Below the pieces are notes generated by a model. That model saw only the letters and a list, made by a program, of their open reading frames with translations, had not been told where the DNA came from and did not search any database. Of a DNA stretch of 64,000 nucleotides, positions 8,574 to 35,109 are shown piece after piece (position 1 is the first letter of the stretch; the number at the start of each line of letters is the position of its first letter). The position numbers and the translations under genes were made by a program. Source of the stretch: a virus; the IMG/VR virus record IMGVR_UViG_3300030365_000081, positions 87,625 through 151,624 of that record; one strand, given 5' to 3'.

Positions 8574-10439
8574 GTGGGATATTTGAATAACGCGGGGTTG
8601 AGCTACTTTTTTGGCAAGCTGAAAACCATTTTTGCGCCCATTAGCCACGGGCACGGGGGAGCTACACAGAGCGAGGCTGGCTTTATGAGCGCAGCCGATA
8701 AGAAAAAATTGGATGGGATTGCCGAGGGGGCGAACAAATACAGCCTGCCCACGGCGACCAGCAGTGTGTTGGGCGGCGTGAAAATCGGAGCAAACATTAT
8801 GAACAGTTCCGGTATACTTAGTGTGACAAAAGCAAACGTAACAGATGCGCTGGGATTTGTTCCGCCGACAGAGAACACCTGGCGTGATGTTGTGGACGAA
8901 TTAACCAGTACGGCAACGGATAAGAGCTTGAGTGCAAACCAGGGCAAGATCCTAAACGAAAGAAAAGTAACCATTCGGAGTTGGGACGCAAAGGTCCAGT
9001 GTGCAACATGGTGCAGACTCTGCTATGTAACACGAGCTATGGACATAACGGGAAGTTCTTTTATTTTGAATGTTGCAGGAACACGCGACAATGTTGTTTA
9101 CGATGACACGTTTGTTATAAAAGCGCACTATTTCAGTAAAGCAAAGATTACAAAAATTTCTGGATGCAATCACTCTTCGGTTAAGCTCCGTGTGGTTTCT
9201 AATTCAGGCGGAAATTGTTATGTTGAATTATACGATGATGCGGCAAGCGCTACAAATGCTACGGCCCAAACTGTACATTGCCGTTTAATTTCTATTTATA
9301 CGGGATCGGTTACTTGGTATACCGCTATTACGGACGGAACTACACTGCCCAGTGATTTTTCGGTAAGCGATTCAATGACCACAGATCAAAACGGTCTACA
9401 GGGAAGTTTATCTTGGTTAAATATTACGGACAGGCCTTGGACATTTACGCCGAGTCCCCATAACCACAAAGTTGCGGACATTACAGATTTTCCGGCACTG
9501 GGAACGGCATCTGGTAAGAATATTCGGACTTTGGTCAATGTAGGAACCAGCGGTTGGCAAAGTACAGCAGTTGACCAGCAGTATGTACCGGATATGAGCC
9601 TTATTTCAAACTGGAACGGTGCTTACAGCGGGACAAAATCTAACCTGGCGTACTGCAATAAAGGTGCATTTGGCACGATTATAACCAAAAATGTTAGCGA
9701 CTATGCTTTAGCTGGACACACCCATACCTGGGACAGTGTAACAGATAAGCCGAGTACTTTTACACCAAGCAGCCATACGCATGGAGTAATTAAATCCCTA
9801 AGCGTGAGTGGCACGACTATTACATGCACAAAAGATGACGGTACGACCAGCACAATTACAACTCAAGACACGAACACAACCTATAACGTATTTAAGGGAG
9901 CTACTACCAGCGAGGCGGGAAGTACCGGCCTGGTGACTGCACCGGCTGCAGGCAATGCGAACCGATATTTGCGCAGCGATGGAACCTGGGCGGTACCGCC
10001 GGATACGAATACAACTTATGGCGTATTTAGTGCTGCCACAGCGGATGCTGCAGGCGGCACAGGACTGGTCCCGGCACCGGGCATGGGGCAGCAGACGTAT
10101 TATTTGCGTGCAGATGGTACTTGGGCCGTACCGACAAATACCTGGCGCGGCATCCAGGACAATTTAACTTCGACCTCCGCTACAGATTCCCTAAGTGCAA
10201 ACCAAGGTAAGGTACTGAAAGGATTGATTGACGGCAAGGCAGCCAGTAACCACACCCACAACTATGCCGGGTCTAGTAGCGCGGGCGGAGCTGCAACCAT
10301 TGCCAACAAATTAACTCACAGCCTACTGATTAGCATGAACGGGACAAACCAGTTTGACTGGAATGCCAGCGAAGACAAATTTATTGATATTACAGCGGCC
10401 AGTGTTGGTGCAACCAGCGTGACAATTAGAAGGTGGTGA
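8574..10439 (+). CDS. tail fibre protein (large, repeat-containing)
   Basis: 621 aa. N-terminal GGATQSEAGFMSAADKKKLDGI and later TTSEAGSTGLVTAP / AAGGTGLVPAPG repeats typical of fibre shafts. Confidence 0.5.
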   Translation: MGYLNNAGLSYFFGKLKTIFAPISHGHGGATQSEAGFMSAADKKKLDGIAEGANKYSLPTATSSVLGGVKIGANIMNSSGILSVTKANVTDALGFVPPTENTWRDVVDELTSTATDKSLSANQGKILNERKVTIRSWDAKVQCATWCRLCYVTRAMDITGSSFILNVAGTRDNVVYDDTFVIKAHYFSKAKITKISGCNHSSVKLRVVSNSGGNCYVELYDDAASATNATAQTVHCRLISIYTGSVTWYTAITDGTTLPSDFSVSDSMTTDQNGLQGSLSWLNITDRPWTFTPSPHNHKVADITDFPALGTASGKNIRTLVNVGTSGWQSTAVDQQYVPDMSLISNWNGAYSGTKSNLAYCNKGAFGTIITKNVSDYALAGHTHTWDSVTDKPSTFTPSSHTHGVIKSLSVSGTTITCTKDDGTTSTITTQDTNTTYNVFKGATTSEAGSTGLVTAPAAGNANRYLRSDGTWAVPPDTNTTYGVFSAATADAAGGTGLVPAPGMGQQTYYLRADGTWAVPTNTWRGIQDNLTSTSATDSLSANQGKVLKGLIDGKAASNHTHNYAGSSSAGGAATIANKLTHSLLISMNGTNQFDWNASEDKFIDITAASVGATSVTIRRW

Positions 10440-10444
10440 TTTTT

Positions 10445-11665
10445 ATGGGAGTTTATTTAGGAAGTACCGCAGTAGATATGCAGAGCGGTATTAGCAACAG
10501 TGCAGTTTCGACACAGAGTTCTGTATACGCCAAGCTTAAAGCAGCGGCAGTTAAAGGACCTGCTGCGGTAAGTTTTATTGATGACGACTGCCGGAAAGAG
10601 ACTTATACAGTTTTGTGGCCGGTAATCCAAGCGAAGAAGATCCCGTATGGATTAGCGTGCCCGCCCAGCCATATTGGGAAAAGCAATTACATGACAAAAG
10701 ACCAGCTGATGACTATGATAAATGGCGGGTGCGATATTTTGAGCCACCACTTGAAAGAATATGCCATGACACAGTTTGATACGGCAGAAGCATATGAAGA
10801 AGATGTTCAGAAAGCTACAGATGCTTTTACTGCGCTGGGTATTTATGATGTAAAAGGTGTGGCTTACCCCAATGGATACCGGGTGGACGAGTATATGCCA
10901 GTAGTGCGAAAGCATTTTGATATGGGGTTTACGGTGGACCGTGGCATCAATACCTTGCCGATGGAAAGCTGTTACATGAAGCGGTGCGAAGTGTTCCCTA
11001 CGAGTGGGACCTACACTTTGGATGATGCAAAGAAATTGGTGGACAGTGTTGCCGCAGATGGCGGATGGCTGATTTTTATGACCCACGCATGGTATACGAC
11101 GTTCAACGCTGACGATTTAGAGAGCTTGATTGATTACGTTAATGCCAAGGGTGTTGACATTGTTGGTCCTAACGAAGGAATGGAAAGTTTTGGCAACATC
11201 ATTGACATCGGATATGCCAAGAAACCACTCAAAGCAATGAGCACGCCGTACTACATTGTGGATTGCATGGGCAGAGTATACGCCAATACCTGGAATTATA
11301 CCCAGATGAGCACATCGACACGAACCGAGCTGAACTTGCCGTACCACACCGGATACACGCTGACCACGAGCGGAACAACCAAGAGCAACAGTGATGTGAA
11401 ACGTATTATTACGGACAAGATTACTGCGGCTGCTGGGGAAAAATATGTTTTCTGTAGCTTGAGTGCAAAGTATGGCAACTGTTTCTATGTTATTTACAAT
11501 TCCAGTAACACTGCGTTGGCCTACAAGGCAACAAGTGCATCCAGCACGGGTGAAACGCTGGACGAGTTTGAGATAACGATGCCGGCGAATACGGCGTATT
11601 TCCGTTTGGCATGTGACCTTGGTGTGAATGACGATATGTTTAAGGCATATAAGGTTACGGAATAA
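10445..11665 (+). CDS. polysaccharide deacetylase (CE4/NodB-like) domain protein, tail-associated
   Basis: FIDDDCRKE (TFDDG-like) and ILSHHLKEY (His pair) motifs. RBS aggtgg 8 nt before ATG at about 10445 (track start 10433). Sits in the fibre module, so likely a receptor-modifying enzyme. Confidence 0.4.
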   Translation: MGVYLGSTAVDMQSGISNSAVSTQSSVYAKLKAAAVKGPAAVSFIDDDCRKETYTVLWPVIQAKKIPYGLACPPSHIGKSNYMTKDQLMTMINGGCDILSHHLKEYAMTQFDTAEAYEEDVQKATDAFTALGIYDVKGVAYPNGYRVDEYMPVVRKHFDMGFTVDRGINTLPMESCYMKRCEVFPTSGTYTLDDAKKLVDSVAADGGWLIFMTHAWYTTFNADDLESLIDYVNAKGVDIVGPNEGMESFGNIIDIGYAKKPLKAMSTPYYIVDCMGRVYANTWNYTQMSTSTRTELNLPYHTGYTLTTSGTTKSNSDVKRIITDKITAAAGEKYVFCSLSAKYGNCFYVIYNSSNTALAYKATSASSTGETLDEFEITMPANTAYFRLACDLGVNDDMFKAYKVTE

Positions 11666-11683
11666 AGATACGAGCAATATGGC

Positions 11684-11726
11684 CGCTGTGATTTGTAGTC
11701 ATGGCGGCTATTTTTTGCTTTTTTAT
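11684..11726 (+). terminator. putative terminator hairpin + T-run
   Basis: atggccgc tgtgatttgtagtc atggcggc followed by tattttttgctttttt. Confidence 0.4.
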
Positions 11727-11754
11727 ACAGATAGGAGTATTTTTATGGCAACTG

Positions 11755-12902
11755 ATACAAAACTGGACAGTTTGGTGATTAACTACCTGACGCAAAGCCA
11801 GTATGACAATGCGAAAAGTTCTGGAACATTGAACGCAAACCAGATTTATATGACACCGGCAACGACATATACACTGCCTACGGCTACAAGTTCTACCTTG
11901 GGCGGGGTAAAGATTGGCAGTAACATTAGCATTAGTAACGGGAGTGTTAGCGTACCAGAAGCCGATGTTTCGGTAAAAGGTGTTGTAACAATTTGGAGGT
12001 CTGTTGAGGCTGGATATACTGACGATCGGGTTCCGACTATGAATGCTGTATATAAGTGTATAGCTGCAAACAAGGTGAGCGATGCGTATAACAATACAAG
12101 AACTACAAATGCAGAAGGAATTGACGTTACCCATGGGGAAACCGCCAATAAACTTGGAGTTGTGGGTATAGACCATTGTGTGATCGCCGGAGAGCACCAC
12201 CCCTTAGGAGCGATTAAAGGTTCTGTTGGTTCAATAAACCTAGGATATACTGCCCCACATACAGCAGATGGAGCTATTATTGGTGGATATTATAGTTCTG
12301 ATTCATATGCCAATAATGAAAATAAAATTTTTACATTAGGAAATGGATCTTCTTCCGCTTCTAGTAATTGCTTTTATGTTACCACCACAGGGAATGTGCA
12401 TACAGCGGGGACTGTAGCATCTTCTGGTGCTGACTACGCAGAATATTTTGAATGGTTAGATGCTAATGCCAATAAGGAAGATCGCAGAGGACTATTTGTA
12501 ACTTTAGATGGAGATAAAATCAGATTAGCTTCCAAAGAGGATCATTATGTTCTTGGTATAATTTCTGGCAATCCTACAGTTATCGGTGATGGTGCAGATA
12601 TTCAATGGCATAATCAATATAAGCGTGATATATTCGGATCTTACATTCATTCAGATGACACATACAATCATCTTGTATTGAATCCTGACTATAACCCTAA
12701 TAAAAAATATATTTCTAGGTCTGATAGACCCGAATGGGACCCCGTTGGCCTTATGGGTAAACTTATTTGTGTTGATGACGGCACTTGTGAAGTAAATGGT
12801 TATTGTTACCCTTCCTCTAATGGCATTGGAACAAAAGCGAAAACCGGATACCGCGTGATGGAACGATTGGATGAAAACCACATCAGGGTACTTGTGAAAT
12901 GA
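11755..12902 (+). CDS. tail fibre protein with AT-rich distal (receptor-binding) module
   Basis: Track ORF 11628..12902. Start taken at ATG about 11755 (MATDTKLDSL...) after taggag RBS. N-terminus shares the ...PTATSSTLGGVKIG... motif with the 8574 gene. C-terminal half is markedly AT-rich. Confidence 0.5.
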
Positions 12903-14426: not shown

Positions 14427-14793
14427 CCCGGTATTTACATTTACGGCGCAGGACATACTGATGCTGGTGCTTTCAGCTTGTGCGGCGGTGGTTAGTATTT
14501 CGAATGCGATTGCCCAGGGGGTTAAGTTCAACAACTTTTTGAAAAAGCCAAACAGAGATCAGGATGCCCGGATGGACAAGATTGAAGAGCGGCTGAAAAC
14601 GGTGGAAGGGCGCTGCGACACGTTTGACAAACAGTTGGATGGTGTGAAGAAGCACCTGAATAGCCTGGATGAAAGCATTAACATGCTGCTGCGGGCAGAA
14701 TTTGCACAGCTGGGGCACAACCTGAACGGCGACAATGTGGAGCAGATGCAGCGAGCATTTGATGATATACAGGAGTTTTTGTTTAAGCGTTAA
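14419..14793 (+). CDS. lysis-associated membrane/coiled-coil protein (holin or spanin-like)
   Basis: 124 aa. N-terminal TM (ILMLVLSACAAVVSISNAIA) then coiled-coil. Overlaps previous gene end. Confidence 0.4.
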   Translation: MPNPVFTFTAQDILMLVLSACAAVVSISNAIAQGVKFNNFLKKPNRDQDARMDKIEERLKTVEGRCDTFDKQLDGVKKHLNSLDESINMLLRAEFAQLGHNLNGDNVEQMQRAFDDIQEFLFKR

Positions 14794-14795
14794 GG

Positions 14796-14824
14796 TTGAC
14801 AGCGAACAACATGTGGTATATAAT
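14796..14824 (+). promoter_or_regulatory. strong sigma70-type promoter (TTGACA-17-TATAAT)
   Basis: ttgaca gcgaacaacatgtggta tataat immediately after the lysis cassette. Confidence 0.55.
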
Positions 14825-14830
14825 ACAAAT

Positions 14831-14957
14831 AGAGGATTGAAGCTCTTAATAAGCGAACACCTCAGTTAGCTACAAATGAACCAAATACATCTGCTACAAT
14901 GTACCCAGTTCAGATGAGGCCGCCTAAGTGCTAGTTAGGTAGCCTCATTTCTTTTTA
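14831..14957 (+). ncRNA. candidate small non-coding RNA (~125 nt)
   Basis: Perfect-consensus promoter followed within ~125 nt by a Rho-independent terminator (gatgaggc..gcctcat + tttcttttt). No RBS-preceded ORF in the interval. Confidence 0.35.
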
Positions 14958-15032
14958 CGGCCAAAATAAATGGCCACAAAAACGCCAGTCCATGTACGAT
15001 ATGGCAAAACATTACGCTGTTATACAAACAGG

Positions 15033-15081
15033 AATAGGGAGTCCCTTTGGTTTGAAACCTTAGGTGCTCCCTATTTTTTAG
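15033..15081 (+). terminator. second Rho-independent terminator
   Basis: aatagggag tccctttggtttgaaaccttaggtg ctccctatt + tttttag. Confidence 0.5.
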
Positions 15082-15609
15082 CAGGGTGGAAGTATCAATA
15101 CAGTTCAGAGACAGAAAGAACTTTGGCGGGAAGATCCTCGCGCTTGCCGGATGGGGTTGGTGTGGAGATCTTGATGATTTTATTGGGTTCCCTATATTTC
15201 GCTAAATTAAGCTTTAGCGAAGTTGACGGTTATTTCTTGTTCTTTTTGTATTCGGCCATTGCGTCTGCCAGGCGCTGTTCCCAACCGGCGTTGTCGTCTA
15301 AAAATTTATTGTAAAGAATTTCTTCGGCTTCTTTTCTGGCAGCGGCTGCGTCTTTTAGATTGGTGAAGAAGCCAAGGTGTGGGTACGAATACAATAGGCA
15401 GGTTGCACAAAGTTATGCCCAAGAATGTGTACGCGGTTGCTATTTGGTTGACGGGATTGATTTTTGTTGAATTGCCGGCATGTGGGGTGTATACTTTTTG
15501 GTATATGGGTTTATGGGGTGTGAAACCGAGAAAACGGCCAATATGAACGGTTTATGAATTGATAGATGATACATGCGACAAGATTGAATCCGGCCGGTGC
15601 TGGCTGCTG

Positions 15610-16310
15610 CAGCTATTACGAGTTTGTTTTACGCCGAAAACTGCAAAAAAATCAAACCCTCTCCCCTGCTGCCGATTGATGGATAGAGCATTTAGAGCTG
15701 AACTACGAGTTTCTTTTACGGTGAAAAAGCGCAAAAAATACCGATTGTAATAAAGCCAGGATGGTATGGATAGGCGGCGCATGGCAGGACTTGAAGTTGA
15801 TTTATGACCATCCATAGCCAGAATTACGAGTTTGTTTGACCAAAAGATTGAAAAAATATGGTTCAGACGGCTAGATATAGATGGTTGATGCAGCGCAATG
15901 AACTACGATTTTGTTTGATTTGAAAAGGCGTAAAAAAATAAGGAGCGGGACCACTCCCCTACCCTATCCGTTTGGCTTAAAACTACGAGTTTGTTTGACG
16001 AAAAGCGCAGGAAATAAAAAAATTAACGTGGATTACGAGATTGTTTGATGCGAACTACGAGATTTTTTGACGGCAATTACGAGATTGTTTGACAGCAAAA
16101 AGCAGGATTTTGCGTAAAAGAAACTCGTAGCAGGAATAAAAGAAACTCGTATCCAGTATAAAAGAAACTCGTATGTAGAATAAAAGAACCTCGCAGCTTG
16201 TGTAAAAGAAACTCGCAATATACCTTATATAATATAAATATAAAATATAAATAATAAATAATAATAAGCGCAAAAAATTTTACTACGAGTTTTGTTTTGA
16301 AGAAAAGCGC
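15610..16310. repeat. replication origin: ~9 direct + ~5 inverted iterons (TACGAGTTTGTTTGAC-like), A-tract motifs and AT-rich DUE
   Basis: Direct copies at about 15617, 15704, 15824, 15904, 15983, 16033, 16056, 16078 and 16282. Inverted copies (aaaagaaactcgta) at about 16115-16215. Recurrent gaaaagcgcaaaaaa spacers. Run tatataatataaatataaaatataaataataaataataata at about 16225-16265. Sits upstream of the Rep initiator gene. Confidence 0.65.
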
Positions 16311-16440
16311 AAAAAAATCAGGCTTGACGAGCGGATAAAAATAGGGTAAGATAAAGATATAATGCGTTAGGTATACCCACCTGTGCGATGCGATACATAC
16401 ACTGTGATTTGGAGGTTGAGCTTGACATGGCGGACAGGCT

Positions 16441-17994
16441 ATGCGGGCGAACAGAATAATGAAAGACCAAAAAGTAAACCGTGCAGGCACAGGAACGGCG
16501 ATTACCGGAGAGGTTATGACGGACGAAGAGGTTAAGGCGAAAAAGGAGCAGGAAAATAAGAGCGGCTCCCCTTTTGCCGTTGGATCTTACATCACCAAGA
16601 GCAATGACCTGATCCAGAAGACCAAATATTCTCTGCCGCGCAACGAACAGAAAATTTTGTTCATGCTGCTTTCCAAGATTGACCAGAAAAATGACACGGA
16701 TGCTTCGAAGTATTACACGATTACGTTCAGCGACTTTTCAAAGCTGACAGGTGTGAATGCGGAAAAGCCGGCCTATGTGGCATATTTGCAGCACACGATT
16801 GAAAATTTGGAGAACCGGACATTTTGGGTGCCGATTGCCCCGACCAAGTACAAGAGCATGAGCTGGGTACGCAAAGGTTCGATTATTGATACTGATGGGA
16901 AAACCATCAGTATGCGGTTCAATGAGGACATTTGGAAAGACATTGCCCAGCTGACAAGCAACTACACATCTTACAGCATTGAATACCTGCTGATGATGCA
17001 GAGCACCTATTCCATGCGGGTGTATGAAATTATCTTATCTTATGATAACGGCAACCGGGACTACGAATATGCCAATGGGCTGGTGTTTGAGCCGGTGACG
17101 GACGAGGTGCTGGGGATGTTCCCCGCCAAGCGGAGCCAGCTGCGCGGATACAAGTATAAAAAGTTTGGCATTGATGATTTCAAAAACCTGCTGTCTGTAC
17201 CGACCAAAGAAGAGCGCGGTATGAACCGCAAAAAATCCGATGTGGATAACAAGTATGACCGCGAAAAACCGTTGACAGAAAAGTACCCGAATTTTTCAGA
17301 CTTTGAACGCAATGTTTTGAAGCTGGTGAAAAATGAAATCAACGAGATGACAGACCTGTGGTTTGATTATGAGCCGGTACGAACCAAAGGCGTGCGGAAA
17401 TACACCCATCTGTATATCTTTATCAAGTACAAATCACGCAAAGAGATGGAGAAGGTACGGGCGTTTTTGAGCGCAAACCAGCGCAGCGACCAGGAGGTGG
17501 CACGCCAACAAAAGGCGAAGAAACAAGCTGTGTTGGCGGCTGAAACCGGAGAGGTCTCTCCCCTGCCCCCGGCTGTGATGAGAATGACGTTCCGCAAGGC
17601 GCGGGGCGAGATAGAAGACCGGGCTGGCTATGCGGGCTACAAAAAGGAGCTGACCGTAGAAGAGCGGAATGTTTTGGCAAATGTGTTTACTTATGCGGCC
17701 AAGATATTGACCAACCAGAACAAACAAGACCAGGCTGAAGAGACACTGGAAGCGCTGAACGGAATCATCCAAAATAACCATGGGCTGAAAAGCTGGGCGT
17801 TGGGTGAACTGGAGAAGTTTAACGTGATGCTGAGGCAGGATGTGGAAAAGAAATCCGCCCAGTATTACCGCACGGTGGTGTACAGTGACATTGTAGAAAA
17901 TTCCGCCACGATCATTGAAAGCGGAAAACGACGGATGGGACAGGACGGCAAAGAGCCGATGTTCCGACTGGATGAAACAACATTTGAAGAATAA
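16441..17994 (+). CDS. replication initiator protein (RepA_N-like, iteron-binding)
   Basis: 517-aa ORF immediately downstream of the iteron array. N-terminal region (...SYITKSNDLIQKTKYSLPRNEQKILFMLLSKIDQ...TITFSDFSKLTG...) resembles Gram-positive RepA_N plasmid initiators. C-terminal Lys/Glu-rich region. Confidence 0.55.
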   Translation: MRANRIMKDQKVNRAGTGTAITGEVMTDEEVKAKKEQENKSGSPFAVGSYITKSNDLIQKTKYSLPRNEQKILFMLLSKIDQKNDTDASKYYTITFSDFSKLTGVNAEKPAYVAYLQHTIENLENRTFWVPIAPTKYKSMSWVRKGSIIDTDGKTISMRFNEDIWKDIAQLTSNYTSYSIEYLLMMQSTYSMRVYEIILSYDNGNRDYEYANGLVFEPVTDEVLGMFPAKRSQLRGYKYKKFGIDDFKNLLSVPTKEERGMNRKKSDVDNKYDREKPLTEKYPNFSDFERNVLKLVKNEINEMTDLWFDYEPVRTKGVRKYTHLYIFIKYKSRKEMEKVRAFLSANQRSDQEVARQQKAKKQAVLAAETGEVSPLPPAVMRMTFRKARGEIEDRAGYAGYKKELTVEERNVLANVFTYAAKILTNQNKQDQAEETLEALNGIIQNNHGLKSWALGELEKFNVMLRQDVEKKSAQYYRTVVYSDIVENSATIIESGKRRMGQDGKEPMFRLDETTFEE

Positions 17995-18000
17995 CCAGGG

Positions 18001-18032
18001 GGAGCTGCTGACGAGGTGGCTCCCCTATTTTT
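18001..18032 (+). terminator. Rho-independent terminator after rep gene
   Basis: ggagctgctgacgaggtggctcccc + tattttt. Confidence 0.5.
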
Positions 18033-18042
18033 AACTATATTA

Positions 18043-18066
18043 CAGCAACAGGAACTTTTGAGTTTG
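18043..18066. repeat. parS-like 24-bp repeat copy 1 (CAGCAACAGGAACTTTTGAGTTTG)
   Basis: Identical 24-mer also at 18121..18144 and 19738..19761 (inside parB). Confidence 0.5.
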
Positions 18067-18083
18067 TCAGATGCTCTACCCCG

Positions 18084-18111
18084 TTGACATTGCCATGAAG
18101 TGTGATATAAT
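18084..18111 (+). promoter_or_regulatory. promoter for parAB flanked by parS-like repeats
   Basis: ttgaca ttgccatgaagtgtga tataat (16-nt spacer) between the two upstream 24-bp repeats. Confidence 0.45.
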
Positions 18112-18120
18112 CAAATTAAA

Positions 18121-18144
18121 CAGCAACAGGAACTTTTGAGTTTG
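18121..18144. repeat. parS-like 24-bp repeat copy 2
   Basis: Identical to 18043..18066. Confidence 0.5.
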
Positions 18145-18161
18145 ACAAGTGAGGGTTAGCT

Positions 18162-19016
18162 ATGGCAGCAAAAATTATTACGATTGCGATTGAAAAAGGC
18201 GGCTCTGGTAAGACGGTTACGGCTTCTAACCTTGCCTACTTAATGGGAGATGAAGGGAAAAAGGTTTTGTGCGTAGACACCGACCCGCAGGGCAACCTGA
18301 CCTTTGCATTGAGCGGCGGCAATACGATTACAAGCAATGCTTATTCCCGCAAAGCGCTGTACGATATGTTTGACGGATTCAAGTATACCTCCACGAAAGA
18401 GTATATTGTGGGGACAGAGTATGAGAATGTTGATATGATCCCGGCAAGCAGCCAGACACCGCGGATTAACAAGCGACTGTCGGACCTGTTGGCTGATGCG
18501 CAGCAGTACGATGTTGGCGACCCAAGACGGTTGGAATCTACGGCCGACTTTTTGCTATACTTTTTGGACCAGGTGCGGGAAAACTATGATTACATCATTA
18601 TTGATACCCAGCCGACTCGTGACAGTATGATCCTTTCAAACGCATTGGTAGCAGCGGATTATGTATTGATCCCGATGATGTGCGATTCGTTTTCTGAGGA
18701 TTCGGCATTTAGAACTTATTCCATTTGCAATGAGCTGCGCAAGAACCCAAAGACGAACCTGAAAGGAATCGGCGTGATTTTGACCATGGTGGACAAGGGC
18801 GCGGCCACGAGAGAGACGCGGGAAGAATGCCAGAGAGTGCTTGGCCCTACCCTATTCAAGACTGAGATACCCAGCGCTTTGGCCGTGAAGACATCGGTGA
18901 GAAGATGTGTGCCGGTATGTTATTCTGCCAAAACGCAACCGATTGGTAAGAGTTATGTGTCGGCTTATAAAGAGCTGAAACAGCGGCTCGAAAAACTGGA
19001 CAAGGAGGAAAAGTGA
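18162..19016 (+). CDS. parA: ParA/Soj-family partition ATPase
   Basis: Deviant Walker A KGGSGKT. 284 aa. Followed by ParB with a 2-nt gap. Confidence 0.8.
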   Translation: MAAKIITIAIEKGGSGKTVTASNLAYLMGDEGKKVLCVDTDPQGNLTFALSGGNTITSNAYSRKALYDMFDGFKYTSTKEYIVGTEYENVDMIPASSQTPRINKRLSDLLADAQQYDVGDPRRLESTADFLLYFLDQVRENYDYIIIDTQPTRDSMILSNALVAADYVLIPMMCDSFSEDSAFRTYSICNELRKNPKTNLKGIGVILTMVDKGAATRETREECQRVLGPTLFKTEIPSALAVKTSVRRCVPVCYSAKTQPIGKSYVSAYKELKQRLEKLDKEEK

Positions 19017-19017
19017 G

Positions 19018-20208
19018 ATGGGTTTGAAATCAAAGCCGAAGAAAGGCAATGAAAAGAAACTGAATATCCCCACCAGCAGTGCAGCAAAAGAAGTGAACGA
19101 TAACGATGCCGGCCGTGCCCTGGTTGGAAAGATTGTTGGCAATAAGACCATTGAGTTTGAAAATAAGGATATCAGCCTGGCAGACATCCGGCTGAACCCG
19201 GACAACGAGATTTTCCGCCAGAATGACAATGGAGAAGATATTGAAATATTAGCCGAAGACATTAAGCGCAATGGCCTGCTGCACAACCTAGTTGTGTTCC
19301 CGGAACAGGAAGATGGTAAGACGGTGTATGTTTTGCTTTCTGGCGAGCGGAGATACCGAGCATTGATGCTGTTGCAGGAACAGGACGCGACATGGAATGC
19401 GGCCAAGAACTGTAATGTAATTACCACTCCTCTATCCCCCAATGAAAAGAAAGTTATTTTGTACAGCGCTAACCTGCAGGTGCGCGGTGGTTTTGGTGAT
19501 GAAATGATCCGGCGTAAGGCATCAGCCGAATTTATTAAGTGTTTACAAGAAGAACCATATAACATGAACCAGGCCGAGGCCAAGAAAGCCTTGAAAGAAA
19601 TCAGTTCCGCAAGTGGAAAAATGATTGATAGAGATTTGCGCCTGGAAAACGATTTGAATAAAGGACTGCTGAAACTGCTGGATGACAAAAAGCTGAAACG
19701 CTCAGAATGCGACAGATTGATTAAATTTGAAGAGAAACAGCAACAGGAACTTTTGAGTTTGTACAATAGATTGTTTGCGATTAACTGTGTGAACGAAGAA
19801 GACCGAGACAGAATCCGCAATGATACCCAACAGGGATTGGACGATGCCTGGAACGGAGACTCGACAGAAGAACGCGAGGAAAGGCTGGAACAGGTATTAC
19901 AAAGTTTTGAAACAAGCGTGACCGCACTTGAAACAAAGATGGCGGCCGAAAAGCCTGCTGAAACCGAAAAACAGGCTGCACTTGAACGCGAGATTGAAAC
20001 TGCTGAGAAGAAAGGCGAAACCAAAACATTTGTTCAGAAAACTTTACAGCCGCTGGCCGGTAAGATTGGCAAGAAGATTGCAACACCGGCATATAAAAGA
20101 GGACTGAAAAAGATGAGCCGGGAGCAGCGGGAAGAAGACATTAAGACGCTGACAGAGCTGATTGAAAAAGCTGCGAAGCTGAAAGAGCTGCTGGAGACGG
20201 TTAAGTGA
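19018..20208 (+). CDS. parB: ParB-family partition protein
   Basis: N-terminal ParB/Spo0J motif (...VLLSGERRYRAL...). 396 aa with Glu/Lys-rich C-terminal region. Third parS-like repeat lies inside the coding sequence. Confidence 0.7.
   Translation: MGLKSKPKKGNEKKLNIPTSSAAKEVNDNDAGRALVGKIVGNKTIEFENKDISLADIRLNPDNEIFRQNDNGEDIEILAEDIKRNGLLHNLVVFPEQEDGKTVYVLLSGERRYRALMLLQEQDATWNAAKNCNVITTPLSPNEKKVILYSANLQVRGGFGDEMIRRKASAEFIKCLQEEPYNMNQAEAKKALKEISSASGKMIDRDLRLENDLNKGLLKLLDDKKLKRSECDRLIKFEEKQQQELLSLYNRLFAINCVNEEDRDRIRNDTQQGLDDAWNGDSTEEREERLEQVLQSFETSVTALETKMAAEKPAETEKQAALEREIETAEKKGETKTFVQKTLQPLAGKIGKKIATPAYKRGLKKMSREQREEDIKTLTELIEKAAKLKELLETVK
19738..19761. repeat. parS-like 24-bp repeat copy 3 (intragenic in parB)
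   Basis: cagcaacaggaacttttgagtttg identical to the two copies upstream of parA. Confidence 0.45.
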
Positions 20209-20660
20209 TGGCAAAGGAAGTAAAAATCAACCTGCGGCTGAGTATGCGTGTACGCGAGGTGCTGAACGACGAGGCCGAGGTTGAAGATACCCGCATTGGA
20301 ACCGTGGCAAACCGGCTGTTGCAGGAAGAGCTTGGCAGGATGATGGCAGTGGGTGCCGACCGCTGCGTGATGAAAGATACCAAAGAATACCGGGCTTTGA
20401 TGCCGCACCTGGAAGGAAGTTATGTGCTACCGACAGAACTGGAAATCAACCGGCACATTACAACGCGGCTAGATGACAAGAACTACCCGCAGGTTTCTTT
20501 GTACTTTACGAAAGAGCAGGCAGAGTTCATGGCCGGACTGGTGAAAAAGCAGAGGATACGAGGAACCCTTTACTATGACGGTAGTGTGAAATCTTACCGG
20601 TATGTGATTGTGGGGATGCTGTTGAAGAACCCGTTGTTTGCTGATTTTGGCCTGAACTAA
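20205..20660 (+). CDS. hypothetical protein
   Basis: 151-aa ORF overlapping parB stop (ATGA). Last plus-strand gene before the convergent terminator. Confidence 0.4.
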   Translation: MMAKEVKINLRLSMRVREVLNDEAEVEDTRIGTVANRLLQEELGRMMAVGADRCVMKDTKEYRALMPHLEGSYVLPTELEINRHITTRLDDKNYPQVSLYFTKEQAEFMAGLVKKQRIRGTLYYDGSVKSYRYVIVGMLLKNPLFADFGLN

Positions 20661-20709: not shown

Positions 20710-20976
20710 TTAGTCGCTGACTTTTACTGCAAAGTTTTTAAGCTTTTGATAACAATCAATGTAGAGTTCCTGCTTATCGCCGTTATAGGTAACTTCGTAA
20801 TACAGGCCGTCTTTGACAGGGGTGGTGAAAAGACCTTTATTGTTTTGAAGAGTTTTGCACGACCAGACGGTGTAGATATCATCTGGTGACAGATAGACAC
20901 CAGTTACATCAGCGTTATCATTGAAGTAGCGGGAGATGGCGGTGCAGGCAGCCAGTTCAAATTCTTTAGGATTCAT
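20710..20976 (-). CDS. hypothetical small protein
   Basis: 88-aa ORF. Start overlaps upstream stop (cATGaatcctAAa). Confidence 0.4.
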   Translation of the reverse strand: MNPKEFELAACTAISRYFNDNADVTGVYLSPDDIYTVWSCKTLQNNKGLFTTPVKDGLYYEVTYNGDKQELYIDCYQKLKNFAVKVSD

Positions 20977-21215
20977 GGACGGTACCTCCGGTAGAATTAC
21001 AGGTTATATCAGGCGGTGCTTTCCAGATTATATCAAGCGGCGCTTTCCGAGGGGTTGGAGTGGGGATAAACGGCATGTTATCAATCGGCTTGGTGTTTGG
21101 CGTTACCGGCAGAACTGTTTCGCCCTGTTCGGTTGTGATGGTACGCTTGATGAGATGGCCGGCATCATCAAATTCTTCCGTAAAGGTAAAGATTGTTTTA
21201 CTCAACTTTCCAGCC
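20966..21215 (-). CDS. hypothetical small protein (possible TTG start)
   Basis: C-terminal 79-80 aa of track ORF 20966..21487 (LSKTIFTFTEEFDDAGHLIKRTITTEQGETVLPV...). GGAGG 8 nt upstream of TTG at about 21215. The upstream part of the track ORF overlaps the phosphoesterase in another frame and is rejected. Confidence 0.3.
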
Positions 21216-21770
21216 TCCTTCCTTATCCCAGGCAATGAGCTGGTTAAGAGTTTTGGGGGTATAATCATGCAGCATACAGCCAACGTTGATGATGTTGCCC
21301 TTGTTGCTGGCGATACCGACCGCATTATCACGCAGTTCTGCTTTCCACTTGGCGAGATAGGTGTTCTCACGGGTGTTATGAACATGGCCGCAGAGCATGT
21401 AGCAATCTGGCGAATAGGAGTGGTTGTAGAACATGATAGGGTAGTGGCAGAGAATAAGTTTATATTTGCTGGCTGTGAGTTCATCATAGCCCTTGATGGA
21501 AGAAAAGTAGCGCATCATTTCCGGTGAGATTTTATCGTGGTTGCCCTTAATGAGATGGATATGGCCATTGAGCTGTTCAAGGATCATAGGAGCTTCGGAC
21601 GGGTCCCAGAACATATCGCCAAGGACGTAAACGTTATCGCCCGGAGAGACAACGCTGTTCCAGCGCTTGATAAGCTCCGCGTGCATAGAGGGCAGGTCAA
21701 GAAACGGACGGTCATCGAAGCGGATAATGTTACGGTGAGAAAAATGAAGGTCAGCAGTAAAGAAATTCAT
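21198..21770 (-). CDS. calcineurin-like metallophosphoesterase
   Basis: MNFFTADLHFSHRNIIRFDDRPF...GDMFWD...GNHD motifs (D-x-H, GD, GNHD). Start at Met77 of the track ORF, preceded by gaggtga RBS. Confidence 0.6.
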   Translation of the reverse strand: MNFFTADLHFSHRNIIRFDDRPFLDLPSMHAELIKRWNSVVSPGDNVYVLGDMFWDPSEAPMILEQLNGHIHLIKGNHDKISPEMMRYFSSIKGYDELTASKYKLILCHYPIMFYNHSYSPDCYMLCGHVHNTRENTYLAKWKAELRDNAVGIASNKGNIINVGCMLHDYTPKTLNQLIAWDKEGGWKVE

Positions 21771-26758: not shown

Positions 26759-27261
26759 TTGTACTCCTTTTGAAACAGGATTGTTTTATCAATCGGTACA
26801 TTTCCTCTGAGTTCATAAAAACGCTGGTTCGTTTTTGGATTGTCAAGGCCGCCAAGTTCAGAGACATACGGGCCAACCTTGATAAAATTGAAGTATGTGC
26901 TGTAATTGCGCGGTCCACCGTCATACATCAGATGAACAAAACTTGGGTAGTCAAGACCTGTATAGAGGCATGTTTTCAAGTTGTACCGATGTGCGATTTC
27001 GCATGCTTTCAGTAGTTCAATTTTGTTCTGATCGCCGCCCATAAAACACACGCAGGTAATCATGGACCGGTATTTATTGATGACCGATGGAAGATTCTCC
27101 AGCAATGGGTTGCCGCTATATTCCCATAAGAATTTGGAGTGGCAGTCAGGGCAGTGATGCGGACAACCTGTGATATCAAACACAAGGCTTATCTCACCGG
27201 GGACTTCTTGGAATGTTACATCATAGTGGCTATACAGAAGCGGTTTGCAATCAGTCTGCAT
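26755..27261 (-). CDS. nrdG: anaerobic ribonucleotide reductase activating protein (radical SAM)
   Basis: CPHHCPDC cluster motif. Start taken at MQTDCKPLLY (overlaps nrdD stop, ttATGcagacTGA) rather than track start 27432, which would overlap nrdD by 180 nt. Confidence 0.7.
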   Translation of the reverse strand: MQTDCKPLLYSHYDVTFQEVPGEISLVFDITGCPHHCPDCHSKFLWEYSGNPLLENLPSVINKYRSMITCVCFMGGDQNKIELLKACEIAHRYNLKTCLYTGLDYPSFVHLMYDGGPRNYSTYFNFIKVGPYVSELGGLDNPKTNQRFYELRGNVPIDKTILFQKEYK

Positions 27262-29086
27262 AATAACGCTTCGCTGCCTCCTTTTGGCGGGCTTCGGAGA
27301 AGCTGGATACGCGCTTGAGATAACCAATGACACGGGTTGCATAGTCCAGGTTCTCACTGCCGCACTTAGGGCATTTATGCAGGTGGTGTTTAGAAATGTG
27401 TCCGCAGTCATTGCAGATGGTATTTGGCACATTCACCGTCCAGTAGGGGCATCCAGTCTTGATAGCCACATCCATCAGTTTGCGGTACTGATCCTTATCC
27501 AGATGTTCCTCCAGATTCAGATGCAGAGCGCTGCCGCCGTCCAGATACTGCGTCATTTTGGAGCCGTGAAGCATGAATTTATCAAGCGGCTTGGTAGGAT
27601 CTTCGACAACATAGAAGTAACTGTTGTAGCAGTCACGCGGAACTACAAAGCCATCCTGTTTATCCCACTTTGCGTTCTTGACACCAAGGTTTTCAGCAGG
27701 GACATATTCTGTGTTAAACATAATGCCGTCAGAGCGATCTGCCTTGTTCTCGTCATAGATGACCTTGAGCACTTTGTTCGTAAAATCAACATAGTTTTGG
27801 TCGTCCGGGGAGATGGTGTAGCCAAGGAATTCACAACCCTCAACAAAGCCGTTAATGCCAATGGTCAGGAACTGCTTATCCAAAGAGATATATCCGGCAT
27901 CGTAGATAGGGAGCAGCTTTGCATTGAACTCGTCCTTCAAAATTGCGTTCCATGCCTTGAGGTAAACATGGATATCTTTGACTTGTTCACGAACGGCCTC
28001 GCAAATATCACGGCCATCGGCAACAGCAGTCTGGATTAGGCGATTCATATTGATGGTGATAACACCCTTAGACCCAGTAGCCACGCCGCCAGCACCAAGA
28101 GTATAACTGAAGGTATTGTCGCTCATTTCATTGCGCAAACGGCAGCAGGATGCCAGAGAGTCCACACTATTGGAACGATAGATAAAGAAGCTATGGCCTT
28201 TAGAAAGCATTTCGGCGGCATTGTCAGCCCATTCCTTATCTACATAATTAGTGCCATCATCCAGCAGGTTCAGAGTCTCGACAGGGAAGGTGAGAATCTT
28301 CTTCAGACGCTCCTGATTCAGCCATTCCATAAAGCGTTTTTGCAGCCAAGATACGGACTCCCACTGCATTTCTGTGCCATCGGGGAATACGAAATCAGAG
28401 AACATGCCATCAAAATACGGATTGTCGAAGTATGCGCAGTTCCAGAAGATGGACTGGAAATTACGAGCAGCGGCAGGCTGATTCAGAGAATAGACGACCT
28501 GCTCAAAATGGTCAGTAATAACCTTGTCGATGGTGCGATGACGGCTGGAAAGATCGACTACCTTATCAGCGTGCAGGTAATAATCGTCGCCATAGTCCTT
28601 GCGGATAAAGTAATCAAGATAAGAGATAAACTCAGGGGTGGCAACTGCGCCGGCAAACTGAGATGCAATGGCAAAGCACAGGTTGATAAATTCACCGCAA
28701 AAAGAATCAAGGTTGTGAGGAGCAGATGAGCCGCCGCCGATGCTTTCCAGACCATTGAACAGGAACGGGTACATGGTAATGGAGACGCAGTATACTAGGC
28801 ACGGAGTTGTTTCGTCATGGCGGTAAATAAAATGGTGGTCAAGCTGGTAAATGTACTTGTCGGCATACTCCTGACCGTACAGCTCTTTGATTTTTTGCCA
28901 CATACGCAGACGGTTGATGCCGATACCATCTTTTTTATAAAGTTCACCAGTCAAAGTGGTGACATTCTTGCATTCCACATTCGCGTTCGCATCAACCTTA
29001 CTGCCAGTGGCTGCGTTGCTGGATGCAGCATACTCCTTGATAAAGTCAAGATACGGCTGATATTTTTCATATTGTTCGATAGCCAT
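27251..29086 (-). CDS. nrdD: anaerobic ribonucleoside-triphosphate reductase, class III
   Basis: 611 aa. C-terminal glycyl-radical motif (RVIGYL) and Cys4 Zn ribbon (CNDCGH...CPKCG). Confidence 0.85.
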   Translation of the reverse strand: MAIEQYEKYQPYLDFIKEYAASSNAATGSKVDANANVECKNVTTLTGELYKKDGIGINRLRMWQKIKELYGQEYADKYIYQLDHHFIYRHDETTPCLVYCVSITMYPFLFNGLESIGGGSSAPHNLDSFCGEFINLCFAIASQFAGAVATPEFISYLDYFIRKDYGDDYYLHADKVVDLSSRHRTIDKVITDHFEQVVYSLNQPAAARNFQSIFWNCAYFDNPYFDGMFSDFVFPDGTEMQWESVSWLQKRFMEWLNQERLKKILTFPVETLNLLDDGTNYVDKEWADNAAEMLSKGHSFFIYRSNSVDSLASCCRLRNEMSDNTFSYTLGAGGVATGSKGVITINMNRLIQTAVADGRDICEAVREQVKDIHVYLKAWNAILKDEFNAKLLPIYDAGYISLDKQFLTIGINGFVEGCEFLGYTISPDDQNYVDFTNKVLKVIYDENKADRSDGIMFNTEYVPAENLGVKNAKWDKQDGFVVPRDCYNSYFYVVEDPTKPLDKFMLHGSKMTQYLDGGSALHLNLEEHLDKDQYRKLMDVAIKTGCPYWTVNVPNTICNDCGHISKHHLHKCPKCGSENLDYATRVIGYLKRVSSFSEARQKEAAKRYYAD

Positions 29087-33102: not shown

Positions 33103-35109
33103 TTAACGTACATGGCTGTATTTATAAAGGAAGGTGTTGAAATCCGTTGTGGACTGGACCCAACCGGCATCGGTGTGGGACCACTTGCCCTCCTGCTTGG
33201 TGCCAAGAACCTTGATGATATCGCCTTGAGCGACCGGGTTTTGATCCATGGTGGAGGGACGGATTTTGAAATTAACGGTTTGACCGGTTGCAAGCTGGTA
33301 CAGTGCGATGGTCTTGTTTTTATATTTGCCGTCAATAGAGAGAATGTAGTGGTAGGTGGAAGCGAGAGAAGGGTTTTGGTATTGGAGGTAGCCAAGGTAC
33401 TCGCTCTGGGCATCTAAGACCTGCTTAACATGCAGCGGTTCATCCGGCAGATCATTCCAGATGGCTTGAAGAGCAGAATCATACTGGAAATCTTTATAGG
33501 TTTTAAGCTGGTCAGATGTGGTGGAGTAAGCTTCAATGTAAGGTTTGTACGATGACTTAGTGTCCTTTGGAAATTGAGAACGGCCATAGAGGTCATTACA
33601 CGCACTGATAAACTTGAGAATCTTATTGCCGCCAGCGAATGGCTTAAAATAATCCAGCAGGACAAGCGTTTCGATCTTGGCGGAGTTTAAGCTGCGGGTA
33701 TGGGACATTTCTTTCCAGAGAGAGTAAAAATCGGTGAATTTACCGGACTGATACATTTTCCAGAGGTCATTGGCACAACCTTGGCTTAAACCTTTGATGG
33801 AGAGAAGCGAAGGGTCAATGGCGTGGTTTTCTTTATCAGCGGTAAACTTGCGGTTATCATGCCCCCACTGGATAGGGCCTTCATGAATACCAAAACCGCG
33901 GAACATTTCAGCTTTGAGAGCAGCTACTTTTTCCTTTTTGCCTTTATTGGAGAAGTGCTGCAGGCAGACCTCGTAAAACTCATAGGGATATGTGGCTTTC
34001 TGCCAGGCATTATAGAGGGAATCATAGGCCATACAGGCTGAATGTGATGAGTTGAAACTGTACGTTGTGGCGTCGCTAATAATCTGCCAAATCTGATTTG
34101 CGATTTCAACCGGCTCTTTGCCCGGTGGACATTGGCCTTGAAGCTTATCACAGAGGCCGGAGATAAACTGTGCCTTTAACGGTTTAACCTTTTCAGGATG
34201 CTTTTTGGCAATATCCTTGATGATGCCGTAGCACTGGTCCATGGGGAAGCCAGCAAAGTTCAGAATCGTCATCAAATTTTCCTGATACAGAATAAAGGAG
34301 TATGGGAACTCTTTTGTTTGAATCAGGTTGTCAATGACAGGAACGCCGTAATCAAACGGAACGCGGCGCTCAAATGTGGGATACATGGACTTGAAACCGG
34401 GGCGGATGGCAGCAACAAAAGCGGACAGCTCAGAAACGTTTTGCGGTTTATAACGCATGAGTTTTTGAGTGGTGGAAGCTTTTTCGCACTGGTTGACACC
34501 GCAGGTGAGACCGCTGGCATAGATATTCCAGACGGCTGGATTATCCTTGACTTTTTCTGATAGTTCATCAACGGTCAGAGGCTCCATGCCGATACGCTTG
34601 AATACTGCTGCGGTAAGAGCTACGGTATCAACAATCAGCCAGTCATTTTTAAGGAACTTATATTTTTCAGCCACAGCGCCATCAATGACAGTGGTAATAT
34701 ATTCCTTTTTGGTTGTTTCACTTTTACATTTGATAAGACCAATCTGGCGGCGGATGCTGCCCTGATAAAGAAGATAGGCACAGGGAGCTTTTGATTTGGA
34801 TACAATTAAGCCCCAGTAAACCTCGCTGCGTTTGACAAGATCCTGATATTCTGGGTCAACGTAATCATAGATACTGATATCGGCTTTATCATCATCATCG
34901 GCATATTTGAGAGCAACTTCGTACTTTTCAAGCTGGTCGCTGATTTTATTGGCAGTTTCAAAGTCCAGCCTTTGAGCGCGGGCGTACATCTTAAATGCAG
35001 CTTTCTTTTTCATGGTGCCAAAGGCAATCATGGGGTAAGCATGGTCTGCACCGAGGATTTCGCGCTGGGCACGCTCGAATGGTTCCTGCGCACTGATATT
35101 CTGGTCGAT
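33103..35109 (-). CDS. dnaE: DNA polymerase III alpha (DnaE-type) exon 2
   Basis: Frame open upstream of the track ORF (33103..35031) to nt 35160. IDQNISAQEPFERAQREILGADHAYPMIAFGTMKKKAAF aligns with DnaE FDVDFC...VSQIITFGTMAAKAV. Exon starts right after an intronic G at 35110. Confidence 0.7.
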   Translation of the reverse strand: MDQNISAQEPFERAQREILGADHAYPMIAFGTMKKKAAFKMYARAQRLDFETANKISDQLEKYEVALKYADDDDKADISIYDYVDPEYQDLVKRSEVYWGLIVSKSKAPCAYLLYQGSIRRQIGLIKCKSETTKKEYITTVIDGAVAEKYKFLKNDWLIVDTVALTAAVFKRIGMEPLTVDELSEKVKDNPAVWNIYASGLTCGVNQCEKASTTQKLMRYKPQNVSELSAFVAAIRPGFKSMYPTFERRVPFDYGVPVIDNLIQTKEFPYSFILYQENLMTILNFAGFPMDQCYGIIKDIAKKHPEKVKPLKAQFISGLCDKLQGQCPPGKEPVEIANQIWQIISDATTYSFNSSHSACMAYDSLYNAWQKATYPYEFYEVCLQHFSNKGKKEKVAALKAEMFRGFGIHEGPIQWGHDNRKFTADKENHAIDPSLLSIKGLSQGCANDLWKMYQSGKFTDFYSLWKEMSHTRSLNSAKIETLVLLDYFKPFAGGNKILKFISACNDLYGRSQFPKDTKSSYKPYIEAYSTTSDQLKTYKDFQYDSALQAIWNDLPDEPLHVKQVLDAQSEYLGYLQYQNPSLASTYHYILSIDGKYKNKTIALYQLATGQTVNFKIRPSTMDQNPVAQGDIIKVLGTKQEGKWSHTDAGWVQSTTDFNTFLYKYSHVR

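Follow-up and report, generated by a model that had tools for sequence, protein, structure and literature searches.

The window analysed here, a stretch of 64,000 nt (positions 87,625 to 151,624) of the IMG/VR virus record IMGVR_UViG_3300030365_000081, contains at 14.8-21.2 kb what its sequence indicates to be a self-contained plasmid maintenance cassette, consisting of an iteron origin, a Rep_3 initiator, ParA, a CTPase-type ParB, three putative parS sites and one further open reading frame (ORF). The reading that we consider likely is that this cassette occupies the lysogeny-module slot, flanked by lysis and early genes, of a circular, ~140-147 kb temperate phage of human-gut Clostridia, which is kept in its lysogens as a low-copy circular plasmid, that is, as a phage-plasmid. 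In over 30 assemblies, genes for tail proteins, lysin, holin, terminase and tape-measure protein share their contigs with those for Rep_3, ParA and ParB, and the phage would represent a new and abundant gut phage-plasmid lineage produced by a lysogeny-module swap. The parts of the swapped-in segment, all of whose cassette ORFs are intact, are the following (positions in the window).

14794-15616, no strand: left part of the swapped-in segment, non-coding; the sister phage L312 is homologous up to 14793
15617-16021, plus strand: five dispersed direct 'long' iterons, with cores starting at 15617, 15704, 15825, 15904 and 15984
16034-16093, plus strand: three direct iterons in exact 22-bp register, at 16034, 16056 and 16078
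16114-16217, minus strand: five inverted iterons, likewise in exact 22-bp register, directly next to the AT-rich block (motif scan and reading)
16218-16282, no strand: predicted AT-rich DNA-unwinding element (DUE), from stability, base composition and near-invariance
16284-16318, plus strand: rep-proximal iteron (with a 1-nt insertion) and a perfect A-tract motif, upstream of the rep promoter-like site
16324-16352, plus strand: rep promoter-like site, TTGACG-17-TAAGAT (9/12 match, a consensus match alone)
16441-17994, plus strand: rep, 517-aa long-form Rep_3 initiator (WH1 ~55-200, WH2 ~205-345, C-terminal domain ~375-500)
17998-18026, plus strand: intrinsic terminator after rep (12-bp stem with 7 GC pairs, T-run)
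18042-18144, plus strand: parA regulatory region (parS-1 at 18042-18066, promoter at 18084-18111, parS-2 at 18120-18144)
18162-19016, plus strand: parA, 284-aa partition ATPase (deviant Walker A KGGSGKT at residues 12-18, no N-terminal helix-turn-helix, HTH)
19018-20208, plus strand: parB, 396 aa (ParB N-terminal domain with GERRYRA, hypervariable centre at ~aa 200-330, conserved C-terminus)
19737-19761, plus strand: parS-3, third identical 25-mer, at +720 nt in parB, where the variable ParB segment is encoded
20205-20660, plus strand: orf151, conserved fourth cassette gene, 151 aa (faint ribbon-helix-helix hint only)
20710-21222, minus strand: right end of the swapped-in segment, with an 88-aa DUF6275 ORF at 20710-20976; sister homology resumes at 21223

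The module swap is seen by comparison with a clade of sister phages, whose PhoH is 64-67% identical and whose contigs reach 139-150 kb. These phages have the backbone in common with the window phage and are without Rep, ParA, ParB and iterons, and homology between the two clades stops at window position 14793 and resumes at 21223. At the corresponding locus, between the metallophosphatase gene and the lysis genes, the sisters encode an integrase of 384-404 aa (PF02920 and PF00589, 2e-35) with Tn916-type arm-binding, SAM-like and catalytic domains, beside which lie repeated, attP-like TTACACCA motifs. At 10 of the 12 sister loci the integrase is followed by only 33-351 nt before the contig ends, and one contig reads through to the lysis genes. 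Since the cassette sits where the sisters carry their integrase, the phage most likely persists as a plasmid and not as a chromosomal insertion. We also considered whether Rep and the iterons could instead be a vegetative (lytic) origin comparable to lambda O/ori, as iteron-binding initiators are used by many phages, Rep-like families are held in PHROGs (phrog_4402) and the phage encodes its own DnaE and DnaB-like helicase. However, the sisters share the replisome genes (DnaE, 74-78% identical at the one sister locus reaching it, NrdD and PhoH) yet are entirely without Rep and iterons, so that lytic replication in the family needs neither; furthermore, the cassette moves as a unit with parA, parB and parS, has relatives on plasmid-like contigs and replaces an integrase, not a replication gene. 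A lytic origin is thus very unlikely, and because the sisters replicate without the cassette, its role would be maintenance.

The origin lies directly upstream of rep. Allowing up to three mismatches, the iteron motif TACGAGTTTGTTTGAC was matched 12 times in the window, against 0.55 matches expected (none of 100 shuffled sequences reached 12), and all 12 matches are confined to 15617-16217. Two degenerate copies were recognized by eye at 16180-16195 (minus strand) and 16284-16300 (plus strand, 1-nt insertion), bringing the total to 14, nine direct and five inverted, all inside 15617-16300. A first-pass annotation of the sequence, which had claimed about 14 iterons in these two orientations, A-tract spacers and an AT-rich unwinding element, was therefore correct in the iteron counts and coordinates, and its other two elements were recovered as well. 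That is, a GAAAAGCGCAAAAAAAT-like A-tract follows most of the dispersed iterons on their 3′ side (five matches vs. 0.58 expected in the window), and the segment at 16226-16285, adjoining the iterons, has the highest A+T content (92%) and the lowest stability of any 60-mer in the window (free energy -55.7 vs. a mean of -82.1, standard deviation 5.4). Such an array of ~17-22-bp iterons beside an AT-rich DUE and adjacent to rep is the arrangement of Rep_3-class origins. Among 29 distinct variants of the phage, 12% of the columns vary in the iterons vs. 37% in the spacers (Fisher p=1e-12), and the AT-rich block is almost invariant, which shows purifying selection on both iterons and AT-rich block. 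A role in copy control ('handcuffing') is a candidate function of the five dispersed long iterons. No further copies of the iteron or of the parS-like repeat were found elsewhere in the window or in the examined parts of the closest full-length contig. DnaA boxes were rejected as a component of the iteron origin, there being none in it and a window count near chance.

The protein encoded downstream of the iterons matches Rep3_N at 3.2e-25 (89.6 bits, cut-off 22.4) and Rep3_C at 2.4e-11 in Pfam (PF01051/PF21205), and NCBIfam returns RepM and RepE. A profile built from 46 Rep homologs matches the PDB entries 1hkq, 2z9o, 1rep and 2nra, i.e. RepA of pPS10, RepE of F and pi of R6K, and the WH1-WH2 part has the three-dimensional fold of these initiators. 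Rep is about twice as long as usual for Rep_3 proteins, the additional length including a conserved, confidently modelled helical C-terminal domain (aa ~375-500) for which no PDB match was obtained by sequence or by fold. The initiator had been described in the first-pass annotation as RepA_N-like; its position stands, the family does not, as the Pfam scan gives Rep3_N and Rep3_C alone. RepA_N identity was accordingly rejected, with no RepA_N domain match in that scan and RepM/RepE in NCBIfam instead. The Rep cluster alone holds 985 member sequences. Long-form Rep proteins abound in gut metagenomes, and one of them is named from Gemmiger sp. When Rep was compared by tblastn with 50,697 phage records, only four matched, the named ones being the Clostridioides difficile phages phiSemix9P1/HGP05 (23% identity) and the other two being unannotated phage fragments from human feces. 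Megablast of window positions 13-23 kb against GenBank phages and PLSDB plasmids gave no match. Hence, the comparison with known phage-plasmid families, recommended at the outset, returned no P1- or N15-type match by megablast or by Rep tblastn. The initial description of the region as the hallmark of a P1/N15-style phage-plasmid thus holds for the presence of a plasmid-type replicon with partition genes inside a phage, but not, according to the Rep search, for kinship to P1 or N15.

ParA is recognized by AAA_31 (3.5e-37) and CbiA (1.6e-19) in Pfam, by a ParA-like PHROG (1e-50) and by NCBIfam ParA_partition. ParB scores 1.4e-6 with Pfam ParB_N (28.7 bits, barely over the cut-off of 26.3) and 2e-13 with a ParB-like PHROG, and its GERRYRA sequence, the CTP-binding motif, is invariant across clades. 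The promoter of parA has the consensus form TTGACA-16-TATAAT and lies between two copies of the repeat ACAGCAACAGGAACTTTTGAGTTTG, which is 25 nt long and occurs in three identical copies, at 18042, 18120 and 19737 (0.00 expected). It had been noted earlier that two identical repeats bracket the promoter of the ParAB operon; bracketing and identity are right, the repeats being 25 nt rather than 24 bp and three rather than two in number. Three repeat types were found in phages that are 96-99% identical in Rep and ParA, namely type A (that of the window), type A2 (...ACAAAGACTTTTGAGTTTG) and type B (...ACAAAGAAyTGrTTCTTTT), the last being the commonest. In every type two repeats flank the parA promoter and the third lies at +720 nt in parB, and all three copies change together. 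The 5′ half of the 25-mer is conserved and the 3′ half is type-specific; a plasmid clade described below has its own variant of the repeat with the same AGCAACA core. The ParB proteins of types A and B are 100% identical at both ends and only 25-56% identical over residues ~200-330, the segment containing the intragenic repeat. The 25-mers are therefore regarded as putative ParB sites, whose co-variation with the central ParB segment would define three specificity types. The combination of a ParA with deviant Walker A motif, a GERRxRA ParB and co-varying putative parS repeats points to a type I ParABS system. The type Ia (P1/F-like) subtype was considered and rejected, ParA being 284 aa long with an ATPase domain starting at residue 4 and no N-terminal HTH.

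Relatives of Rep were found at 41 IMG/VR loci and at five loci in metagenome-assembled genomes (MAGs) of GTDB, the latter labelled Lachnospiraceae, Oscillospiraceae, Acutalibacteraceae, Clostridia and Clostridiales. They include a close clade (Rep 97-99% identical), which is the same phage, with contigs of up to 147 kb and the same iteron layout, and a second clade (Rep 57-63% identical) with contigs of up to 224-389 kb, i.e. plasmid-like elements of 220-390 kb. Only four genes are common to the window and the second clade: rep, parA (61-68%), parB (43-45%) and a homolog of orf151 (27-31%). In L041 (389 kb), the one contig checked for this, the cassette is flanked by genes for RecG, RecD2, SSB, bactofilin and a Cna_B surface protein, and 2.2 kb of non-coding DNA precede rep. 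The order of the origin is kept in the plasmid clade, with two to three direct iterons, about five inverted iterons at 22 bp, an AT-rich block and rep; the five-copy inverted array by the AT-rich block is present in L036, L043 and L044, and four copies were detected in L039 by the pattern used. The iteron consensus, on the other hand, is aAACrGAGrTTnTTT in the plasmid clade vs. TACGAGtTTnTTT in the phage. An architecture that is kept while the iterons change along with Rep is what is expected of a cognate initiator-origin pair. Several contigs end ~90-300 nt upstream of rep, both from the phage (L021) and with Rep 62-63% identical (L032-L034 and GenBank MT837350.1), and these assemblies probably break in the iteron repeats.

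The second clade resembles the Hodors, conjugative megaplasmids of the human gut exceeding 200 kb (Yuan et al., bioRxiv 2026, PMC12934698); that study contains no iteron or parS analysis and treats Hodors as distinct from phage-plasmids. From resemblance in size, habitat, gene set and non-coding region we infer that the ~60% clade is probably of Hodor type. The replicon of this clade has Rep_3, ParA, ParB and the orf151 homolog in the same order, a long non-coding region upstream of rep and the same origin architecture. Unlike Hodors, however, the element of the window is a tailed phage of 140-147 kb and not a conjugative plasmid of more than 200 kb, and the iteron and parS sequences of the Hodor-like clade have diverged from those of the phage. 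No type IV secretion system or sortase family was met in the Pfam and PHROG scans of the larger ORFs of the phage on the composite tiling described below, which were not dedicated searches for either. Taken together, the cassette appears to belong, in diverged form, to the replicon family of the gut megaplasmids, and it is P1-like in logic but unrelated to P1 and N15. A possible, though tentative, history is that an integrative phage changed to plasmid lysogeny by capturing a replicon from co-resident conjugative megaplasmids, with iteron divergence and the three ParB/parS types recording an ongoing escape from incompatibility; the incompatibility partners could be the megaplasmids or other phages of the lineage.

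Several observations indicate that the phage genome is circular. A genome map was assembled by a protein-anchored walk from the window through L061/L194, L191/L322, L381, L368/L216 and L098 back to the window. Contig 144331 (146,786 bp) has identical ends of 99 nt, and contig 162747 reads through the junction and breaks in the variable tail-fibre region; the end overlap and the read-through show that the map is circular or circularly permuted. Rep-clade contigs begin at different map positions. In thirteen bulk-metagenome assemblies, stand-alone contigs of 143.5-147.4 kb and none longer were found (Rep and sister clades were not distinguished here). An assembly check for a circular, plasmid-like form, which had been proposed from the sequence alone, showed circularly permuted contigs, the 99-nt end overlap and no host junctions, a picture that virion DNA would give as well. 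The exact Rep protein was never found on a contig longer than 200 kb. An apparent terminal repeat of ~4 kb in contig 162747 was discarded as an artefact of the variable tail-fibre region.

The sole recombinase on the closed tiling is a 322-aa tyrosine recombinase ~15-25 kb past the right end of the window (L194:1364-2332, minus strand; ~77.8-78.8 kb in contig 162747), which lies on the strand opposite to its neighbours at a gene-orientation switch; the scan of the larger ORFs of the closed composite tiling revealed no sister-type integrase and no second recombinase. The initial statement that no integrase is found in the window holds for the window only. The protein matches PF00589 (9e-15) and the phrog_216 'integrase' family (2e-43) and is conserved at 97-99% in all close contigs, and one might suppose that the phage integrates through it and that the rep/par cassette serves only a transient episomal or carrier state. 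Profile searches cannot separate integrase from resolvase in this case, the NCBIfam Xer, integrase and invertase scores being far under the cut-offs. However, the sister phages also carry a homolog of the 322-aa recombinase (46-49% identical), which coexists there with the full-length arm-binding integrase at the lysogeny locus, so that the small recombinase is probably not the lysogeny integrase. Moreover, Pfam matches its catalytic domain alone, with no match for an arm-binding domain, and its relatives are ~10 times commoner on Firmicutes plasmids (2094 records) than on phages (196), besides occurring mid-genome in Streptococcus prophages; this distribution fits a role in dimer resolution. 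Finally, phage DNA is kept on both sides of the recombinase in every contig extending past it, and no host DNA was found beside it in any contig. Integration through this enzyme is therefore rather improbable. A segment of ~400 nt beside the recombinase gene differs between strains.

Besides the 322-aa recombinase, which could in principle integrate the phage, a number of points weigh against maintenance as a plasmid. Circularly permuted contigs would equally be expected from free or replicating virion DNA. The composite tiling mixes several strains, and its survey skipped ORFs below ~90-160 aa and one protein of 2049 aa. With 19 DnaA boxes in the window vs. 15.6 expected, none is near the origin. 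The GC skew does not switch at the iteron origin, which has thus left no signature of bidirectional replication: the skew is positive on the plus strand of the window over ~106 kb (window, L216, L098, L061, L194 and L191) whatever the gene orientation, reaching 0.25-0.31 where genes lie on the minus strand, with a sole dip at the small recombinase gene, a pattern that suggests predominantly unidirectional replication. No clear repressor/anti-repressor switch was detected beyond a small RstR/DicA-like HTH protein. Lastly, the 233-kb IMG/VR contig 3300045988_152590 carries the Rep-clade cassette and corresponds to ~1.6 genome lengths. For this contig (L031, L086, L113, L222, L280 and L334), a concatemer-like assembly, a co-integrate and a chimera made from two related phages are all conceivable; a Bro-N-like gene on it is only 40% identical to the usual allele. 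Such an over-long contig, and the fact that metagenomic contigs can be chimeric, raise the question of whether the cassette is itself an inactive relic or a plasmid/phage assembly chimera. We consider this extremely unlikely, since the same junctions recur in over 30 independent contigs, obtained from many samples, as well as in ENA assemblies with identical Rep, the cassette ORFs are uninterrupted, and iterons, DUE and parS are conserved or co-vary with their cognate proteins.

The anatomy of the cassette, combined with established knowledge of Rep_3 plasmids and ParABS systems, allows a mechanism to be proposed for the phage-plasmid, in which DNA binding, autonomous replication, copy control, segregation and an extrachromosomal state in cells are all predicted. 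Rep monomers would occupy the 22-bp-phased iterons that lie to either side of the AT-rich block and melt the block, and Rep would then recruit the replicative helicase, either that of the host or the DnaB-like protein of the phage, for theta replication. The five dispersed long iterons would titrate and pair Rep by handcuffing, thereby limiting copy number. ParB may load at the three parS sites, the two flanking the parA promoter possibly also serving in autoregulation (repression) of the operon, and ParA-ATP would segregate the plasmid copies. The small tyrosine recombinase encoded elsewhere in the genome probably resolves dimers.

Like the replicons of F (RepE/ori2), R6K (pi), pPS10 and pSC101 (RepA), the cassette has phased iterons of ~22 bp by an AT-rich DUE directly upstream of rep. 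It differs from these iteron plasmids in that the phage Rep is about twice as long, with the extra helical C-terminal domain and only ~15-21% identity, in that its iterons form two opposed tandem arrays (three direct and five inverted) plus a copy beyond the DUE, and in the absence of DnaA boxes from the origin. With P1, N15 and the phage-plasmid groups of Pfeifer et al. it shares a temperate tailed phage, a plasmid replicon and ParAB-type partition, and with P1 also a small tyrosine recombinase, which in P1 resolves dimers. Unlike in those phages, the host is a Gram-positive gut anaerobe, and there is no sequence kinship, Rep matching no P1/N15-type phage among the 50,697 records. N15 is linear and has a protelomerase, whereas the genome of the window phage assembles as a circle. 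The RepA proteins of P1 and N15 belong to other initiator families. The C. difficile phages phiSemix9P1/HGP05 are likewise Firmicutes phages with a Rep_3/RepB-family initiator, but the 23% identity extends over half of Rep only, and their genomes, of 57-64 kb, are unrelated. The short ParA without N-terminal HTH and the large ParB with GERRxRA are also found in IncC/KorB of RK2 and in chromosomal Soj/ParB. ParB sites occur at promoters in the form of KorB operators, and inside parB in Bacillus subtilis spo0J. In contrast to these systems, the phage has only three sites, all in the cassette, and its parS sequence is unrelated. It is already on record that phage-plasmids, integrative prophages and plasmids convert into one another (PMC10879196).

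At its right side, the cassette includes orf151, of which a homolog is located 3′ of parB at every plasmid-clade locus (27-31% identity). Searches of Pfam, NCBIfam and PDB profiles with orf151 gave nothing significant, and its single-sequence AF2 model was unusable (pLDDT 36). The DUF6275 assignment of the neighbouring ORF is on record for an identical ENA gene. On the left, the swapped-in segment opens directly after the lysis genes with a perfect sigma-70 promoter (14796-14824, 12/12 match), and the following ~260 nt are strongly structured (fold z = -6.05 vs. shuffles) with two terminator-like hairpins. This stretch (14796-15085, plus strand) could be a small RNA at the segment edge. ENA gene calls place no gene between the lysis genes and rep, and Rfam searches, with gathering thresholds for the window and permissive settings for 14.7-16.5 kb, gave tRNAs and noise alone and no known copy-control RNA.

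The backbone is that of a phage throughout. To the left of the cassette the window encodes tail/appendage proteins, an M23 endolysin and a holin; to the right, on the opposite strand, it encodes PhoH, dUTPase, NrdD, ThyX, a split DnaE, a DnaB-like helicase, nucleases and four tRNAs. Of the DnaE, DnaB and primase that had been attributed to the phage, DnaE (as two ORFs) and a DnaB-like helicase are confirmed, and the primase is not, the DnaG match of ORF 39315-40334 being non-significant (E=0.3). The N-terminal and C-terminal parts of DnaE are encoded by ORFs 36329-37543 and 33103-35031, respectively (minus strand, 33103-37543), between which lies a 318-aa ORF with a GIY-YIG-like start (35328-36284). 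The halves are ~80 nt apart in the sister L306, and the split looks like a homing-endonuclease or intron-type insertion. NrdD (27251-29086; compared with loci L307, L313 and L316) is 97-98% identical in sister phages, vs. only 27-80% for neighbouring genes, and in the close-clade contig L316 NrdD is only 25% identical; this pattern suggests that alleles were recently exchanged at this gene. When the larger ORFs of the whole tiling were scanned, tape-measure and tail proteins, a large terminase, a YonO-like RNA polymerase, TnpB and a retron-type reverse transcriptase were identified. The cargo includes a retron-St85-like reverse transcriptase beside a ThiF-family protein (L194:14599-15906 and L194:13631-14314), a TnpB-like RNA-guided nuclease of 578 aa, the gene of which is inserted behind that of the tape-measure protein (L216:5675-7411), and a protein of 850 aa that falls into the eukaryotic-RdRP/YonO two-barrel RNA polymerase family (PF05183, 1e-13; L322:5995-8547).

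A PemK/MazF-type toxin (4.6e-10) is encoded at 54645-55064 on the minus strand, with no evident antitoxin partner called, and the RstR/DicA-like HTH protein (92 aa; 57470-57748, plus strand, opposite to its neighbours) is a candidate repressor or antitoxin. Five paralogs, all on the minus strand (49139-50548, 55145-56692, 57993-59255, 61136-62512 and 63166-63963), share a 'V.VLNK.G.PLMPT' N-terminus and an HNH motif and are on record as Pfam RRXRR (and HNH) and as PHROG 'HNH endonuclease'. The N-terminus looks IscB-like. Two of these genes are preceded by non-coding gaps of ~330 nt, the number of copies varies between strains, and Rfam revealed no HEARO/omega RNA beside them. The tail-fibre region (7816-12730; L028, L004 and L116) is hypervariable between strains that are otherwise 96-98% identical, and several assemblies break there. 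The 1343-aa ORF at 65-4096 is the C-terminal part of a 2292-aa protein (L098 7154-14032) and is not on record as an exact protein. It is 74-77% identical in a further clade of gut phages of ~130-150 kb (L129-L170); that tail-protein clade (77%) was uninformative about the rep locus, which it did not reach within 10 kb.

The features that stand out are the exchange of an integrase for a replicon, the sharing of that replicon with conjugative megaplasmids, the conserved origin with opposed arrays and the three ParB/parS types. Enterobacteria and a few Firmicutes are well-known carriers of phage-plasmids, but for the dominant anaerobic Clostridia of the human gut such elements are hardly described, and the present lineage is common, with dozens of ~145-kb contigs from independent samples. 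It offers a clean natural comparison, in which the same backbone has an integrase in the sisters and a plasmid cassette here, at the same locus. Prophage pipelines that look for integrases or host junctions would call this phage virulent. The iterons and rep together make up a compact candidate origin (~2.5 kb) for vectors in gut Clostridia, which are hard to engineer. The shared replicon family ties the phage to gut megaplasmids, and this bears on host assignment, incompatibility and gene flow between phage and plasmid. If the replicon was indeed captured from co-resident megaplasmids, the lineage would be a natural experiment in the incompatibility-driven diversification of a phage and a plasmid that share one host.

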